Of a stretch of DNA of 64,000 bases, positions 24,843 to 35,329 are shown in pieces. Within the stretch, counting starts at the first letter, position 1. Every line of letters begins with the position of its first letter. The translations under genes were made by a program, and so were the position numbers. Below the pieces are notes generated by a model, which worked only from the letters and a program-made list of their open reading frames with translations, did not search any database and was not told where the DNA came from. The DNA comes from a plasmid, in NCBI RefSeq assembly GCF_054482595.1, contig NZ_JBTHVH010000004.1. One strand, given 5' to 3'.

Positions 24843-24867
24843 CTGCGGACATTCAGCCCGTCCGCAG
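24843..24867. terminator. Hairpin between convergent genes
   Basis: CTGCGGAC-attcagccc-GTCCGCAG followed by a T-run. It overlaps the stop of the 67-aa ORF. Confidence 0.5.
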
Positions 24868-25056
24868 GAGTTTTCGTCCTTCAGTCAACAAATGCACTAC
24901 CTTTTTTGAGTCTCCACTTTCCAGAGCAGAAAACACGTTACCGATTCTACCAACAGCTTGTATCTGAGTGATAACCCCAGTCTTGTAATCATCTAGGATC
25001 CCTGACAGGAAAGCGTTCAGTTTTGTCTGTTCGCTTAGCGAAAGCATGTAGGACAT
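24853..25056 (-). CDS. Hypothetical small protein (67 aa), last gene of the dcm-led cassette
   Basis: The ORF starts 12 bp after the DUF1173 stop. No motif was recognised. Confidence 0.45.
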   Translation of the reverse strand: MSYMLSLSEQTKLNAFLSGILDDYKTGVITQIQAVGRIGNVFSALESGDSKKVVHLLTEGRKLLRTG

Positions 25057-25068
25057 TTTTTCTCCATT

Positions 25069-26388
25069 TTAAGCAGGTGTGTCAGTTGAAAGAGGTTTGC
25101 GTGATTCTGGAAAATGAGGCAGCACCATAGTTTCAGATGCTGTGGTCGCATCCCAGTGCCACCATCCATAAGGCCCATATTCACGGTTGTAATAATCTTT
25201 TTTGAGTTGCTTTCGGGCCAGATAAGCAGGAGTGGCCATACCAAATACTTCCATCGGGAACGGCTTATCGCTTTTTGTGTCGAGCAGGTAGAAGTCAGGG
25301 AACACCTCACTAATACTCGCATCATAACGCATGGGCTTAACGTACTGCCGGTGCTCTGCATCCAGCTTTTCTGCAACAACCGCCTCATAGGAGGAGTCCA
25401 GAGGTATCCAGTTCTCGCTAACGTGCATCAGCACAATTTGATGAGCTCTTACAGAAGGGCCTCTGCCGGTTACCGCAGCTGGTGACGTCAACGCAAAGAC
25501 AACTATTTTCGCCCCGGATTTCCATGCTGCGTACTCCGATGAAAATCGTTTCTTTACGCTATCCCAATGGACTTCTGAATTGAAAAAAATCAGCGGTAGC
25601 CCCCCAAAATTCCGCAGGGGTAAAAATTTAAGTGGCTTCTCATGCTTTTCAGCATCGTAGCGAGGTAAAACTGACAGGAGCATGAGACGTTTATCACTCA
25701 TCGCCTGTGATGAAAGACGCTGAATTTGCGACTGAGCGACAGGTTGTTTCGGGTCAGGTACACCAATGAATAAATGGTCACCTATGCAGGCTCTGCCGGT
25801 ACGAATTTGTTTAGCGGTTTCAAGCAGACGATACCGTACCAGTGAATCGTTACGTTTCCCTGCCATTTTCGGGTACCAGACATTCAGACCAGACTCTGTC
25901 CACAAAAGACTAAGCAAGCCCAGGAGGGTCATTGAGGCCTGACCTCCTTCTGGTCGCTGAACATGGGGCAGGGGAGGCACTTCTGATTTTTCAGGAGGAT
26001 CTTTCTCTGTCATACCGATACCGAGCCTTACAGCCATATCACCTTCGGTTGTAATCCGGACCACACCACTCGCATATCCTTTCAGGCCGGTATGCCGGGC
26101 ATCAAGGGAGAAGAATACACAGGAAGGATCATGCTCAATGCCCGTGTTAGCGGCTTTGACGAGAATAAAGGCATCACCGTTCGGTAAAGCACGAACATAA
26201 AGTCGCTTTTCTCCTTTTCCACGACATCCGCAGGTGATGACTGATTTTTGACCTGAGGTGTGGTGTGCCTTTTTAAGAGCCGACTGCCACCCTTTAGCAA
26301 ACTCATCCTGCGTTTGAAAGTCAGGTGAATACCTTTTGACGTTTGGATCGTCGTCGTAAGCAATCATCACTGCGAATTTTTGGCTCAT
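25069..26388 (-). CDS. DUF1173-family protein (439 aa)
   Basis: The family assignment rests on three blocks recalled from DUF1173 proteins of plasmids and ICEs: VITCGCRGKGEKRLYVRA, LLGLLSLLWTESGLNVWYPKMAGKRNDSLVRYRLL and SENWIPLDS. Confidence 0.6.
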   Translation of the reverse strand: MSQKFAVMIAYDDDPNVKRYSPDFQTQDEFAKGWQSALKKAHHTSGQKSVITCGCRGKGEKRLYVRALPNGDAFILVKAANTGIEHDPSCVFFSLDARHTGLKGYASGVVRITTEGDMAVRLGIGMTEKDPPEKSEVPPLPHVQRPEGGQASMTLLGLLSLLWTESGLNVWYPKMAGKRNDSLVRYRLLETAKQIRTGRACIGDHLFIGVPDPKQPVAQSQIQRLSSQAMSDKRLMLLSVLPRYDAEKHEKPLKFLPLRNFGGLPLIFFNSEVHWDSVKKRFSSEYAAWKSGAKIVVFALTSPAAVTGRGPSVRAHQIVLMHVSENWIPLDSSYEAVVAEKLDAEHRQYVKPMRYDASISEVFPDFYLLDTKSDKPFPMEVFGMATPAYLARKQLKKDYYNREYGPYGWWHWDATTASETMVLPHFPESRKPLSTDTPA

Positions 26389-26410: not shown

Positions 26411-26578
26411 TTAATATCCCAACCAGAGCAACACTTCCTGAGCGTCATACTGTTCCTTTACGCCCATGTCGCTAAAGAATTCTTCGAAATCTGTTTCGGG
26501 AACGCAATGCCTGGACAGTTCTTGTAATGCTCGTTCTTTAGATACCGTCTCACCTTCAGCTGATTCGAAATACGTCAT
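26411..26578 (-). CDS. Small acidic protein (55 aa), not in the supplied ORF track
   Basis: My translation gives MTYFESAEGETVSKERALQELSRHCVPETDFEEFFSDMGVKEQYDAQEVLLWLGY*. A GAGG lies 6 nt upstream, and the ORF sits between dcm and the DUF1173 gene. Confidence 0.5.
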   Translation of the reverse strand: MTYFESAEGETVSKERALQELSRHCVPETDFEEFFSDMGVKEQYDAQEVLLWLGY

Positions 26579-26638: not shown

Positions 26639-28066
26639 TCAGCTGACTTCGTCGTAAAACTGCCGCAAGCGCTGGGAGGCTGCAAATTCAATTCGTGACT
26701 TCAGCAGTTTGGCGACGGCCGCAAAGACATCAACGACCACGGAGTTCCCAAACTGTCTGTAAGCCTGTGTATTGGACACAGGGATACGGAAAACACTTTC
26801 CCCGGGTTTATCGAAGCCCATTAGCCTGCTGCATTCACGTGGCGTTAGCATGCGTGGCCGACGGTCCATGTTGTATGTGTTATGGAAATCAGTTTCTCCC
26901 AGTTCATGAGACCAGCCCCGATCAATAAGAATTTCAGATCCGTCTTTCATATAGCGGCTTGAGAGGGTTATGGTGACACTATTAACATTGGAAGGATCTA
27001 CTAGTCCAAAACCAAAACCATTGCCTTTTGCCGCATGTTTCTTTGCATAGTTGTATAAGTACTCCCAGAGTTTAGGGGAGAGGATGTATTTACTATCTAC
27101 GCTCGGATCCAGTAAATCTGAGAGAGAAGGGCGCTTGTCCGGATAAAAGTCTTTAATGTCTCTCAGAGTAAAACCGTCTTTCAGACGTAGGTCGCGGCGA
27201 AAACCAATAAGGACGATACGTTCACGGTGCTGGGGTCGGAAATGACGGCCATCGATGACTTTAGGATCATCCGCGCCCGTGCTTTCGCTGTTTGCGACGT
27301 CGTAGCCAAGCTCATCGAGCGTTTTCATGATGATGTTAAAGGTATTACCCTTATCGTGACTCTTCAGATTTTTTACGTTTTCCAGAACAAAAATTGCAGG
27401 TTGTTTTGCCCGGATGATCCTGGCCACATCAAAGAAGAGCGTACCCTGAGTGTCGCACTCGAAACCGTGTTTGCGACCCATAGAGTTCTTTTTACTGACA
27501 CCGGCGATGCTGAATGGCTGGCATGGAAATCCCGCAAGAAGAACATCATGATCCGGGATAGAGGCATCGATAAATTTGTATGCCTCGTCATCAGTAACCT
27601 CGGGCCGGTTGCTAAGAGTGATGTCACGGATGTCTGAATTGAAGCGGTGCTCGTTCTCATCGCAATACCAGTTCGCCCGGTAAGTACGGCTGGAATAAGT
27701 ATTCCATTCGCTCGTGAAAAGACATTTACCACCGATGGCATCAAATCCGCTTCGCAGTCCACCTATCCCTGCAAACAGATCGATAAAGCTAAAGTGCCTG
27801 TCCTCATAATCAGCAGGTCGTGAAGGTATTAAAGTCTGTAGATAGCGTCCATCTGCGATACTCAGCTCACAATGCTCAGGTATGCATGTAACCTGACGTT
27901 TAAGGGATGCACGGGACCAATTACTGCCATTTTCATCATTTAATACCTGAGCCAGATATTTCAGGTCATAAATGGTCGAAGCTGTTAACAAAGTTTTGTG
28001 GATCAGAGATGGTGTTTTATCCACATCATTCAGGTCTGTCTCAAGATCATGAGTGTAACGTTTCAT
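26639..28066 (-). CDS. dcm: DNA cytosine-5 methyltransferase, Dcm / M.EcoRII-like (predicted CCWGG)
   Basis: All C5-MTase motifs are present: [42 protein letters not shown] and GNSVVV. By eye it is collinear with E. coli Dcm, including the ~95-aa N-terminal extension. An alternative GTG start lies at 28108. Confidence 0.85.
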
Positions 28067-28277
28067 CCAAACTCTCTCAGGAATAATATCTTTGAGATAG
28101 ATTAACACGCTTAATTTGGATTATTTTTTGGTTCAGGTTCTAAATTTATTGTGATTATTCTGCCTTTAAGTTGCAAAAAGATTGGTTTTAAGCCCGCCCA
28201 TGAAATAATGACTTGTTAAAATACTGCCTGTAAATAGGCTTGTGGATACATGTCTGTACTCAACAAATCAAGGTGAA

Positions 28278-28796
28278 ATGATGTTTTTTTTAACAAAGTT
28301 ACTTTTGCCCATCATGATTGTTGTATTCCCAGTGGCGTCCTGGGGGAACTCAACAACTTTTGAGGCAAAGGTGGTTAAGATTGTTGACGGTGACACCATA
28401 ACTGCGTTGGATGCTCAAAACACAACCATCAAAATACGGATGTATGGTATAGACGCTCCTGAATCTAAACAGGCTTTTGGCCAAAAAGCAAAACAGGCCT
28501 TAACCACAGCTATAGCAACTAAAATCGTTACCGTGATAGACCATGGTACGGATATCTATGGCCGTATGTTAGGTACCATCTGGTTAGATGGATATGATAT
28601 CAATGCCTCTATGGTGGACAGTGGATATGCGTGGGTTTATCGGTTCGAAGATAACGCCATTGTCCCTGGCTATATCAAATATGAATCCGCAGCACAAAAG
28701 GAGGCAAAAGGGTTATGGGCAGACACCAACCCTGTCCCACCATGGCAGTGGAGACAGGCAAACGAAAAGCCCAGAAAGGTGAAAGAGAAGAAATAA
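28278..28796 (+). CDS. nuc: Staphylococcal-nuclease-like (thermonuclease) exported endonuclease
   Basis: It has a signal peptide (MMFFLTKLLLPIMIVVFPVASW) and an SNase core (VVKIVDGDTI…IRMYGIDAPE…YGRMLG…GYAW). An alternative start lies at 28242. Confidence 0.8.
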   Translation: MMFFLTKLLLPIMIVVFPVASWGNSTTFEAKVVKIVDGDTITALDAQNTTIKIRMYGIDAPESKQAFGQKAKQALTTAIATKIVTVIDHGTDIYGRMLGTIWLDGYDINASMVDSGYAWVYRFEDNAIVPGYIKYESAAQKEAKGLWADTNPVPPWQWRQANEKPRKVKEKK

Positions 28797-28798
28797 CC

Positions 28799-29695
28799 AT
28801 GATGAAAGAGCCTCATCCGTTACTTCAGTTGGTACTAAACGATTCCGGTCGTCTAACCATGCCTGTTTATTATAGAGATCAACAGTATTGCCCGACTTGC
28901 CTTACAAAGGTGTTGAAGAGTGAGGATGGAAGTTTGGCGCACCTCGGGGAAATAAATCAAAATACATGTAGACCTTCTATTTCAGTAGTTGTGACAAAAG
29001 CAATTATTGAAATGTTATGTGACGGGGAAAAAATATATGTAAATCCAATACGACACCGAGGCCGGGTGCTGGCACCCTCAGTAATTTTTTCTCCCGACAC
29101 TCACACTTTCAAACCGTTTATAAATACAGACTATCAGCCTGTGGGAGCAAACTGGAAAAGTGAAAAGGGATATAAACTCGGTCTGTTTTATCTCAAAGAT
29201 CGAGCCAACTCTATCAATAAAGAGGAATTTGATTTCATTGCCGTTATAGACCCTGAGGCAATGCAGAAAGAATTTATTTCGGCCTGGTCTGAGGTTGATG
29301 AAAAAAATCCATTGGAAACGCTGAAGCAGATCTTACGATCTAAAAACAACTCTTCTTTATGGGTAAAATGGCCTGGCAAAATTGAGCATGCGCAAAAAGG
29401 AAATTACAACGAAAATTACTGGTTCGATTATCAATCTGATAATCAGGAAGTGAACTGTACGGTCTCTGTTGTAGGTATCGAAGGTAACAGTTCCGGTGAG
29501 ACAATTTATAGATTGCAAACTTTGCTAAAGCGTAAGCTCAATGAATATCAACTGGTTCGGTCTTTAGGGACTATTATGCTTCTTGATAATACCGGGAATA
29601 TGATTCCATCAAACCATCCTTATTTTGAAGTCATCTCAAAAGCATGTATAAATGGAGTGCGTGACTTTGTTCGTCAAAACCCGTGGGTAGTCTGA
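28799..29695 (+). CDS. Hypothetical protein (298 aa) with N-terminal CxxC
   Basis: It starts 2 nt after the nuc stop. It contains YCPTCLTKV…H…C near the N-terminus. No family was recognised. Confidence 0.5.
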   Translation: MMKEPHPLLQLVLNDSGRLTMPVYYRDQQYCPTCLTKVLKSEDGSLAHLGEINQNTCRPSISVVVTKAIIEMLCDGEKIYVNPIRHRGRVLAPSVIFSPDTHTFKPFINTDYQPVGANWKSEKGYKLGLFYLKDRANSINKEEFDFIAVIDPEAMQKEFISAWSEVDEKNPLETLKQILRSKNNSSLWVKWPGKIEHAQKGNYNENYWFDYQSDNQEVNCTVSVVGIEGNSSGETIYRLQTLLKRKLNEYQLVRSLGTIMLLDNTGNMIPSNHPYFEVISKACINGVRDFVRQNPWVV

Positions 29696-29742: not shown

Positions 29743-30150
29743 ATGAATGAAAACTCAGTAATCTTAATAAGTTTATTTTGGTTTTTTTTGGGATCGAGTG
29801 TTGTAGCTGGTTTTATGGATGCATCATTATATTGCTGGATTTTTGCAGCCATAAGCGCATTGTTTCTTCTTTCGGTGATACAAACACCAAAGGAGTTAAC
29901 GGTATCTATTAGTCATATGACAAGCAAAACGCTGATCTCAAAGACAGATGATGGATACACATTTAGCATTTCACCTTACGGAGACGGGTACCGCTTATCA
30001 GTCTCGCCTGAAAATCGTCACAATGGTACCCAAAGCTTTGACGGCTGGTTCCCACGTTTTTTTTCCGAACCACAGTATGCCAAATCATCTTTAACTAAAT
30101 TTCTCGGTGAGTCCTTAGTATGGGAAGAAGATTCAAGTAATGCTCTATGA
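29743..30150 (+). CDS. Small membrane protein (135 aa; 2 predicted TM segments plus a soluble tail)
   Basis: AAGGAA RBS upstream. The N-terminus is hydrophobic: ILISLFWFFLGSSVVAGF / YCWIFAAISALFLLSVI. Confidence 0.5.
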   Translation: MNENSVILISLFWFFLGSSVVAGFMDASLYCWIFAAISALFLLSVIQTPKELTVSISHMTSKTLISKTDDGYTFSISPYGDGYRLSVSPENRHNGTQSFDGWFPRFFSEPQYAKSSLTKFLGESLVWEEDSSNAL

Positions 30151-33448: not shown

Positions 33449-33486
33449 GGGGAGCCCGCAGAATTCGGAAAAAATCGTACGCTAAG
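33449..33486. repeat. Tn1721 38-bp IR (outer end at 33449)
   Basis: GGGGAGCCCGCAGAATTCGGAAAAAATCGTACGCTAAG. Confidence 0.9.
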
Positions 33487-35235
33487 GTTTTCCGGGCATC
33501 CGTAAGGGCCGAAACTTCCCGTCTTCCAGTCTGCGGCTCTGCCGCCAGACGTAATCGCCGGTTAGGTTGATGTGCTCCCAGCCCAGCGGCGACAGGAATT
33601 GCAGCAGCTCGCCGTCCACCGGCTTGCCGGCCTCGACCAACCCCTGGGTGGCGCGTTCCAGGTACACCGTGTTCCACAGCACGATAGCCGCCGTCACCAG
33701 GTTGAGGCCGCTGGCCCGGTAGCGCTGCTGCTCGAAGCTCCGATCCCTGATTTCCCCAAGGCGGTTGAAGAACACCGCCCTGGCCAGCGAGTTGCGCGCC
33801 TCACCTTTGTTCAGGCCGGCATGCACGCGGCGGCGCAGTTCAACACTTTGCAGCCAGTCCAGGATGAACAGCGTGCGCTCGATCCGGCCCAGCTCGCGCA
33901 GGGCCACGGCCAGTCCGTTCTGGCGCGGGTAGCTGCCGAGCTTGCGCAGCATCAGCGAGGCGGTGACGGTGCCCTGCTTGATCGAGCTGGCCAGGCGCAG
34001 GATGTCGTCCCAGTGGGCACGCACGTGCTTGATGTTCAGGGTGCCGCCGATCAGCGGGCGCAACGTCGGGTAGGCTTGCACGCCCTGCGGCACGTACAGC
34101 TTGGTTTCGCCGAGGTCGCGGATGCGCGGCGCGAAGCGGAAGCCTAGCAGGTGCATCAGGGCAAAGACGTGATCGGTGAAGCCGGCCGTGTCGGTGTAGT
34201 GCTCCTCGATCCGCAGGTCGGACTCGTGGTACAGCAGGCCGTCGAGCACATAGGTGGAATCGCGGACGCCGACATTCACCACGCGGGTGCTGAACGGCGC
34301 GTACTGGTCGGAGATATGGGTATAGAACAGCCGTCCCGGCTCGCTACCGTACTTCGGGTTGACGTGCCCGGTGCTCTCGCCCCGGCCACCCGCGCGGAAG
34401 CGCTGGCCATCGGAGGATGAGGTCGTGCCGTCGCCCCAGTGGGCGGCAAAGGCGTGGCGATACTGGTGGTTGACCAGCTCGGCCAAGGCCGCCGAATAGG
34501 TTTCGTCGCGGATGTGCCAGGCTTGCAGCCAGGACAGCTTGGCGTAGGTCAGGCCGGGGCTCGACTCGGCCATCTTGGTCAGCCCGAGGTTGATCGCATC
34601 ACCGAGGATTGCGGACAGCAGCAACGTCCTGTCTTTGGCCTCGGCCCCGTCCTTCAAGTGGGTGAAGTGGCGGCTGAAGCCCGTCCAGTCGTCCACGTCC
34701 ATCAGCAGTTCGGTGATCTTGATGCGCGGCAGTAACTGGCTGGTTTGGTCGATCAGCGCCTGCGCCCGATCCGGCACCGCCGCATCCAGCGGGGTGATTT
34801 TCAGCCCTGACTCGGTGAGGATGGCATCGGGCAGCTCGTTGTCCTTGGCCAGGCGGGTGACGGTGGCCAACTGCTCGTCCAGCAGCTGCAAACGCTCTTC
34901 CAGGTACTGGTCGCTGTTCGGGTTGATCGCCAGGGGCAGGGCCTGCTCGCGCTTGAGTGCGGCGAACTTCTCGGCCGGCAGCAGGTAGTCGTCGAAGTCG
35001 CGGAACTGCCGCGAGCCCTTGACCCAGATGTCGCCGGAGCGCAGGGCGTTCTTCAGCTCGGACAGGGCGCAGATTTCGTAGAATTTCCGGTCGAGGCCTT
35101 CCGGGGTGATCACCAGCGGCTTCCAGCGCGGCTTGATGAAGGCCGTGGGTGCATCGGCCGGCACCTTGCGCAGGTTGTCGGCGTTCATCTCACGCAGGGT
35201 CTGCACGGCTGCCAGCACGCCTTGCGCGGCCGGCC
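33482..35235 (-). pseudogene. tnpA: Tn1721 right-end truncated transposase copy (C-terminal ~580 aa)
   Basis: It aligns with residues ~400-983 of the Tn21-type TnpA in this window. The N-terminal residues of the ORF are unrelated. Confidence 0.85.
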
Positions 35236-35329
35236 CGTGCTGTTCCCCAACTTTTCGCTCGGCGAAGAGTATGAACATGCGCCGCCGGCGACGAATCGCC
35301 AAATCTCACCGTATCTCCCGAGCGGACGA

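Follow-up and report, generated by a model that had tools for sequence, protein, structure and literature searches.

This analysis concerns a two-gene locus on a plasmid, contained in a stretch of 64,000 nucleotides (nt) from contig NZ_JBTHVH010000004.1 (NCBI RefSeq assembly GCF_054482595.1), which we call the window. At this locus a gene for an SNase-type nuclease is followed, 2 nt past its stop codon, by an open reading frame (ORF) of 298 amino acids (aa), here called the orphan, and the pair is transcribed divergently from a dcm-like methylase gene. An earlier note on this DNA had described the same arrangement, and the ORFs and their spacing bear it out. L numbers denote the loci compared with the window, and P numbers denote individual proteins. 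The pair and its parts are as follows.

28278..28796, + strand: predicted exported SNase-type nuclease, 172 aa, with ATG at 28278 and TAA at 28794-28796
28278..28343, + strand: predicted signal peptide of the nuclease, about aa 1-22, from a reading of the sequence
28799..29695, + strand: the 298-aa orphan, annotated in RefSeq (WP_000975182.1) as 'hypothetical protein', founder of a small family without annotation
28889..28969, + strand: putative zinc-ribbon segment of the orphan, C31-x2-C34...H48...C57, read from the sequence

The nuclease TAA is followed by 'CC' and then by ATGATG at 28799, where the orphan begins. A GTG is also present upstream of the nuclease ATG, at 28242.

The nuclease is predicted to be a Sec-exported, Ca2+-dependent, non-specific SNase-type enzyme, and it is an ordinary member of a known family. 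It matches the Pfam SNase model PF00565 over its full length (model positions 1-107 of 107, E = 3.9e-24, 85.6 bits versus a cut-off of 21). When aligned to the Staphylococcus aureus nuclease, it keeps D19/G20/D21/T22, R35, D40, E43, D83, Y85 and R87, which form the Ca-binding and catalytic set. Its N-terminus, MMFFLTKLLLPIMIVVFPVASW, resembles a Sec signal peptide, and a K-rich, then hydrophobic, then AxA-type N-terminus is present in all seven diverged nuclease homologues. RefSeq annotates the protein (WP_001572389.1) as 'thermonuclease family protein', and its only PADLOC match is the generic SNc+LTD model (E = 3.2e-11). The family is found on at least 5000 plasmid records and is very common on conjugative plasmids. 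The earlier note had seen an SNase core behind a signal peptide and had judged such an enzyme an implausible restriction partner of the methylase; the PF00565 match and the conserved catalytic residues uphold this view, with the signal peptide read from the sequence.

We found the nuclease and the orphan adjacent in every examined lineage of the nuclease-linked clade. The nuclease-then-orphan order occurs in IncHI2 (the window and L020), in IncHI1/pHCM1 together with related chromosomal islands (L002), and in the further diverged lineages L008, L007, L028 and the L014/L038/L040 group, where the identity of the orphan falls to 20-22%. The gap between the nuclease stop and the orphan start in seven lineages is 2, 2, 5, 5, -4, 11 and 17 nt. 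Because this spacing of -4 to +17 nt is kept down to about 20% identity, the two genes form a bicistronic operon, which is probably translationally coupled. Two other genes lie between dcm and the pair in the L038 group, where the nuclease and the orphan still adjoin.

The two genes also diverge jointly. Between L008 and the window, the DUF1173 protein encoded on the other side of the methylase gene is 95% identical, while the nuclease is 66% and the orphan 44% identical; the nuclease and orphan seem to have been swapped as one unit in L008. The pairwise distances of nuclease and orphan have a Pearson correlation of 0.96, the highest of any gene pair, compared to 0.87-0.92 for the other pairs of the surrounding gene module. 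Since all module pairs correlate highly, the value of 0.96 is no proof of co-evolution beyond linkage. In the lineages compared, a signal-peptide-like N-terminus is present in every nuclease and in no orphan; the presence or absence of this element places the nuclease outside the cytoplasm and, because it has no signal peptide, the orphan inside it, as predicted compartments.

One explanation for such a pair is a cytoplasmic safeguard, in which the orphan would bind the nuclease precursor prior to export as an inhibitor, an immunity protein or an export chaperone, by analogy to barstar with barnase or NuiA with NucA. The direct adjacency and probable translational coupling in all nuclease-linked lineages speak for it, as do the separate predicted compartments, the close tracking of the two divergences, the joint divergence in L008 beside a conserved DUF1173 protein, and the orphan's rate of evolution, which is the fastest in the module. 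However, the distance correlation may reflect linkage alone, and plasmid SNase homologues without a partner of this kind number in the thousands. The orphan, with 298 aa and an isoelectric point of 7.0 (family range 5.5-8.1), is neither small nor acidic. SNase depends on high Ca2+, and in the cytoplasm it should have almost no activity; consequently, an antidote to the nuclease is not needed. The distribution of the two genes, considered below, weighs further against a safeguard, and we regard it as unlikely.

The nuclease and the orphan are not interdependent. The nuclease family is present on at least 5000 plasmids and the orphan on 1466. In IncHI1B plasmids the nuclease gene is divergent from DUF1173, there is no dcm, and the nuclease is followed by a PLDc_2-family protein (E = 1.8e-7) and then by an H-NS-like gene; an example is the K. 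pneumoniae IncFIB/IncHI1B plasmid NZ_CP055058 (L012, 5962-8187), which has psiA nearby. In IncC, an HU-like gene follows the nuclease. We considered whether the orphan is a relative of its PLD-family positional counterpart in IncHI1B, and rejected this relationship (hhalign probability of 0.1%).

Damaged copies of the operon, among them two independent natural knock-outs of the orphan, separate the two genes in both directions. An E. coli island with nuclease P0071 (L034-L036) carries an orphan that is internally deleted from about aa 71 to 225, leaving residues of about 1-70 and a short C-terminal piece, next to a full-length nuclease that keeps all catalytic residues; 24 contigs were read, indexed in 67 blocks, and the deletion is present in three of the three places shown. 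In plasmid pABW_A19a (L042, NZ_CP067308, 2233-4442), IS1203 splits the orphan and leaves the nuclease and methylase intact. This plasmid is an otherwise identical IncHI2 plasmid, a natural knock-out of the orphan. Conversely, the nuclease of L037 lacks 29 residues, including D83, Y85 and R87, beside an intact orphan of 310 aa.

Relatives of the orphan also exist without a nuclease. A paralogous clade of 341-344 aa, which keeps the CxxC motif, is found on about 130 Klebsiella and Raoultella MOBH plasmids with no adjacent nuclease; its genes lie downstream of parAB and next to genes for large Ig-like proteins (for example, L011 6749-7774, L026 3368-4402, L043 and L044). Solo short forms of about 255 aa lack the N-terminal segment. 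Neither the parAB-adjacent relatives nor the solo short forms have a methylase gene within 6-7 kb. The earlier note had offered the orphan as a possible nuclease inhibitor or immunity factor, a proposal that is disfavoured by the plasmid counts and by the intact nucleases beside deleted or split orphans. It had been right that the pair is conserved together, adjacent in the nuclease-linked lineages down to an orphan identity of about 20%. It had also held that the coupling would be coincidental if either gene occurred widely without the other; the nuclease is indeed widespread without the orphan, and the reverse is borne out in part, by the orphan's relatives that have no adjacent nuclease on those 130 or so plasmids.

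The orphan belongs to a narrow family. It has no match in Pfam, NCBIfam, PADLOC or PHROGs, and searches of the PDB sequences with the single sequence and with a profile returned chance matches only (E = 0.7 or worse). We found 34 relatives among the 5.8 billion clusters searched; a profile search of all 1.84 billion representatives gave only 25 matches, all on IncHI-like elements, and a word-indexed search with a 30-sequence profile added further members of the same family only. As no member found carries a Pfam domain, no bridge from the orphan to a known family was found. The earlier note had recognised no motif beyond the N-terminus of the orphan, in agreement with these remote-homology searches, and a search of the available literature library returned nothing on this protein, nor on IncHI nucleases or plasmid-borne DUF1173.

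The orphan is a real gene under purifying selection, as its ratio of nonsynonymous to synonymous substitution rates (dN/dS) is 0.16 in comparison with L020, at 81% identity, and 0.17 between L002 and L008. In the comparison that gave 0.16, the ratio was 0.11 for the nuclease, 0.12 for the methylase and 0.08 for DUF1173, and the orphan is the most divergent module gene in every comparison. The synonymous rate between the window and L020 climbs along the module, from 0.07 for DUF1173 to 0.25 for dcm, 0.37 for the nuclease and 0.66 for the orphan. Therefore, the region has a mosaic history, and the orphan's divergence is partly a matter of age and not of relaxed constraint. This gradient, together with the identities in L008, may reflect recombination breakpoints close to the dcm-nuclease intergenic region. 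Between the window and L017, which represent two IncHI2 lineages, the nuclease and orphan together differ by six amino-acid changes and no synonymous change, too few for a test of positive selection.

Two AlphaFold2 models of the orphan agree with one another (pLDDT of 73.9 and 79.0, pTM of 0.60 and 0.62). The predicted fold begins with a short beta-rich segment that holds C31, C34, H48 and C57, continues with a predicted alpha/beta domain at about residues 61-190 and a disordered loop at 195-216, and would end in a four-stranded sheet and a long helix at 220-293. The fold bears weak restriction-endonuclease-like and SpoVG-like resemblances, at the level of noise. Across the family, P93, W119, G124, W188, E234, L261 and C283 are invariant, and S121, K123, N183 and D263 are nearly so; these residues form no recognisable nuclease motif, with no conserved D...(D/E)xK or HNH among them.

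The N-terminal segment had been likened in the earlier note to a CoiA-type zinc ribbon. The C31-x2-C34...H48...C57 arrangement is present, and the N-terminus of a distant member, P0049, has sub-threshold similarity to DUF7828 (E = 1.6e-4, 21.8 bits versus a cut-off of 25.7) and also to DUF7830 and CoiA_N. The window's orphan itself matches none of these: against CoiA_N (PF25164) it gives no match, and the best of 21 family members reaches E = 0.079 and 12.9 bits, versus a cut-off of 26.3. The CxxC motif is present in most relatives and absent in P0022/P0023, in P0042 and in the short forms, whose sequence does not include this N-terminal part.

On the other side of the pair lies the methylase, separated from it by a divergent intergenic region.

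26639..28066, - strand: Dcm/EcoRII-type C5 cytosine methyltransferase, 475 aa from the RefSeq start, divergent neighbour of the nuclease
28067..28277, no strand: divergent intergenic region separating the methylase from the nuclease operon, 211 bp from the RefSeq methylase ATG or 169 bp from the GTG at 28108

The methylase matches NCBIfam PRK10458 (841 bits, cut-off of 710) and the Pfam models DNA_methylase (E = 1.4e-74) and DNA_meth_N, and its top PADLOC match is 'orphan methyltransferase'. Its longest ORF, with a GTG start, reaches 28108. The AT-rich control region that the earlier note had described is confirmed in its size (169-211 bp) and composition (about 36% GC), with a GC content of 35.5% at 28000-28199 versus 42-50% in the flanking genes; the start that it had given for the feature, 28109, is the first base past the longest methylase ORF and not the start of the nuclease. 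A scan of this region for the sigma-70 consensus found no convincing promoter on the + strand and one 9/12 match on the - strand, and promoter and terminator scans gave scores no better than shuffled sequences. An imperfect 21-nt direct repeat (28149-28169 and 28213-28233, 76% identity, 64-nt spacing) is not conserved in more distant lineages. We rejected a conserved operator in this region, as an alignment of five lineages shows little conservation.

The proximity of a C5 methylase raises a second explanation, that the orphan is a fast-evolving restriction endonuclease cognate to the Dcm-type methylase, and that the locus is an unrecognised restriction-modification (R-M) system or addiction module. 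The orphan lies close to and divergent from the methylase, and a protein of about 300 aa with no detectable homologues is typical of restriction enzymes. The dcm gene is present in every locus of the nuclease-linked clade with an available upstream flank, dcm and the orphan are both absent in IncHI1B, and the orphan decays while the methylase stays, as happens in decaying R-M systems. Against this, the family invariants contain neither of the two nuclease motifs named above, and no PADLOC, Pfam or NCBIfam restriction-enzyme model matches the orphan. Relatives beside parAB or alone have no methylase in their neighbourhood. Moreover, an exported nuclease within the orphan's own operon intervenes before the methylase, as do two further genes in one clade. 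We judge this explanation very improbable, and the orphan is probably neither a nuclease antidote nor a restriction enzyme.

The window is IncHI2 plasmid backbone. Many IncHI2 plasmids, such as pSTM6-275 (IncHI2A, MOBH, MPF_F), share a 4.1-kb stretch with it at 100% identity; 1,206 plasmid records match this stretch, 1,131 at an identity of 99% or above. The region is found in 286 of 5,426 complete E. coli genomes, nearly always plasmid-borne. On the reference plasmid, the locus is flanked by sil/pco metal-resistance genes and, at its other end, by a resistance region, with no tra genes nearby; in the window we saw neither tra genes nor oriT near the locus. An ORF of 606 aa in the window (33482..35302, - strand) is Tn3-family transposase-like by eye only; on the reference plasmid it lies where the resistance region (tet(A), class 1 integron) begins.

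The operon is part of a larger syntenic module, whose other members in the window include the following.

25069..26388, - strand: DUF1173 protein (Pfam DUF1173, E = 4.6e-39), a member of the syntenic backbone module
26411..26578, - strand: conserved 55-aa ORF between DUF1173 and dcm, its position kept across the diverged lineages examined
24853..25056, - strand: 67-aa ORF after DUF1173, its position kept across the diverged lineages examined
29743..30150, + strand: 135-aa ORF after the orphan, with a C-terminal stretch of about 75 aa that other lineages also have behind the orphan

In most lineages, the full module order is DUF4942, a coiled-coil protein, the 67-aa ORF, DUF1173, the 55-aa ORF and dcm, followed divergently by the nuclease and the orphan. 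This gene order is kept in the diverged loci examined except IncHI1B, which lacks dcm and the orphan. A Pfam scan gave no family match for the 55-aa and 67-aa ORFs.

The 135-aa ORF has no significant family match, its sole Pfam match being DUF3165 at E = 0.045, under the cut-off. Its residues 59-131 have 56-62% identity to L002, L007 and L025 (tblastn). Elsewhere this C-terminal part of about 75 aa is a separate small ORF (L002 6961-7191, L007 7696-7923); in the window it is fused to a hydrophobic N-terminal segment, and in a second IncHI2 lineage (L016-L019, 8945-9879) an insertion of about 530 bp interrupts the ORF. Immediately after the pair, the gene content varies between Thoeris-like genes (ThsB_TIR and ThsA_Macro), SMODS with S_4TM, a type VI secretion system (T6SS) and a Big_3 Ig-like protein (L002/L005/L006 8244-9691, L008 11365-12939, L010 7046-8620, L007 8640-12942). 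This variable region looks like a cargo or defence hot spot.

A third explanation draws on this neighbourhood. The orphan could be an anti-defence or establishment effector that neutralises a host defence or nuclease in a new host, and that is co-expressed with a protective orphan methylase. Its locus lies beside an orphan C5 methylase; its family is narrow, fast-evolving and confined to conjugative MOBH elements; in relatives, Thoeris, SMODS/S_4TM and T6SS genes occupy the variable region directly downstream; and psiA is nearby in IncHI1B. In addition, methylases and anti-defence genes are over-represented in plasmid leading regions (PMC11541004). In its more specific form, the orphan would found a new family, specific to IncHI-type conjugative elements, of establishment or anti-defence effectors. 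Co-expressed with the Dcm methylase and the nuclease, it would bind a host defence component that targets nucleic acids, or the incoming plasmid DNA, and the parAB-adjacent paralogues would serve the same purpose at another locus.

This explanation appears compatible with everything that we have seen. However, the orphan matches no known anti-defence family and its fold matches are at noise level. The locus has no tra genes or oriT nearby that would place it in a leading region, and a dN/dS of 0.16 carries no sign of an arms race. Consequently, we give an anti-defence role a low probability, and the proposal of a new effector family seems to us likewise doubtful.

Our preferred reading, which we hold tentatively and with somewhat less than even confidence, is that the orphan is a co-expressed, independently acting cytoplasmic backbone protein, a nucleic-acid-associated accessory of the IncHI lineage. 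The nuclease-orphan operon would be vertically inherited backbone of IncHI1/IncHI2 plasmids and related integrated elements. The nuclease, once exported by Sec, would act in the periplasm or outside the cell, and the orphan would remain in the cytoplasm and act alone, as neither nuclease inhibitor nor restriction enzyme. The orphan would combine an optional C2HC zinc-ribbon-like N-terminus with an alpha/beta centre and a C-terminus of a four-stranded sheet and a helix. It may bind nucleic acid, or a partner that handles nucleic acid, as a lineage-specific 'establishment/maintenance' accessory protein, and accessory proteins of this kind would be found in clusters that also hold DUF1173, DUF4942 and the orphan Dcm methylase.

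Two lines of argument lead to this reading. First, because the orphan is large, has a neutral isoelectric point, is dispensable for an intact nuclease and has nuclease-free relatives, we take the link between the two genes to be co-expression and not physical partnership. Second, the neighbourhood consists of DNA-related accessory genes, namely the orphan Dcm methylase, DUF1173 and DUF4942, to which relatives add psiA and H-NS, and in the pLS20 plasmid family SNase-like nucleases and C5 methylases are both among the putative establishment genes (PMC8708921). These neighbours, the pLS20 parallel and weak structural hints point to a nucleic-acid-associated role; binding itself is suggested by the weak similarities of the N-terminal segment.

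Several points weigh against the accessory-protein reading. The tight coupling and the Pearson correlation of 0.96 would equally fit a physical partnership. We recognised no DNA-binding motif in the orphan, its neutral isoelectric point lends no support to DNA binding, and the literature search turned up no biochemical or genetic data on it. The natural knock-outs are a few lineages or isolates, known by their sequence. The 'establishment module' is an analogy and not a mapped leading region, as no tra genes or oriT lie nearby.

The orphan is an uncharacterised, lineage-restricted backbone family at a known kind of plasmid nuclease locus, and not a demonstrated new system; the findings give no indication of a new mechanism. 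IncHI2 and IncHI1 plasmids, among them the typhoid plasmid pHCM1, are important vehicles of multidrug resistance, and the pair lies in the conserved backbone of about 1,400 sequenced plasmids and in about 5% of complete E. coli genomes. Knowledge of the orphan's role would fill a gap in IncHI biology, whether in establishment, in maintenance or in the interaction with host defences.

Compared to known systems, the orphan falls, by its sequence features and its distribution, outside the CoiA-like proteins, the restriction enzymes, the nuclease inhibitors, the PLD proteins and the known defence proteins. It shares with the CoiA-like proteins (a CoiA_N zinc ribbon followed by PD-(D/E)xK) and with DUF7828/DUF7830 an N-terminal CxxC...H...C followed by an alpha/beta domain. 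It differs from them in scoring below the gathering thresholds, in lacking both a match to the CoiA nuclease domain and an acidic catalytic motif, and in the loss of the zinc ligands in several members.

Secreted nucleases with cytoplasmic inhibitors are known from barnase-barstar, NucA-NuiA and the colicin DNases with their Im proteins. As in the barnase-barstar type, the gene for an exported nuclease directly precedes a co-transcribed gene for a cytoplasmic protein. In contrast to these pairs, and to the known small acidic nuclease inhibitors, the orphan is large (298 aa) and of neutral isoelectric point; it is also dispensable in natural knock-outs, absent beside most nucleases of the family, and has relatives without a nuclease.

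The divergent R-M systems of the SsoII/EcoRII type resemble this locus in their Dcm/EcoRII-type methylase with DNA_meth_N, their AT-rich spacer of about 200 bp and their divergent neighbours. Here, however, the divergent genes encode an exported non-specific nuclease and the orphan, with no recognisable restriction enzyme; the lineages share no conserved operator, and the methylase is best matched in PADLOC by orphan methyltransferases.

The nuclease itself resembles the plasmid SNase-type nucleases (PF00565), such as IncC nuc; RK2 ParB is another plasmid-borne nuclease of this type. They have in common a full SNase domain, the Ca-binding and catalytic residues, a signal-peptide-like N-terminus and a location on large conjugative plasmids. 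Most of the others stand alone or before unrelated genes for PLD-family or HU-like proteins, whereas the nuclease of IncHI1 and IncHI2 heads a two-gene operon.

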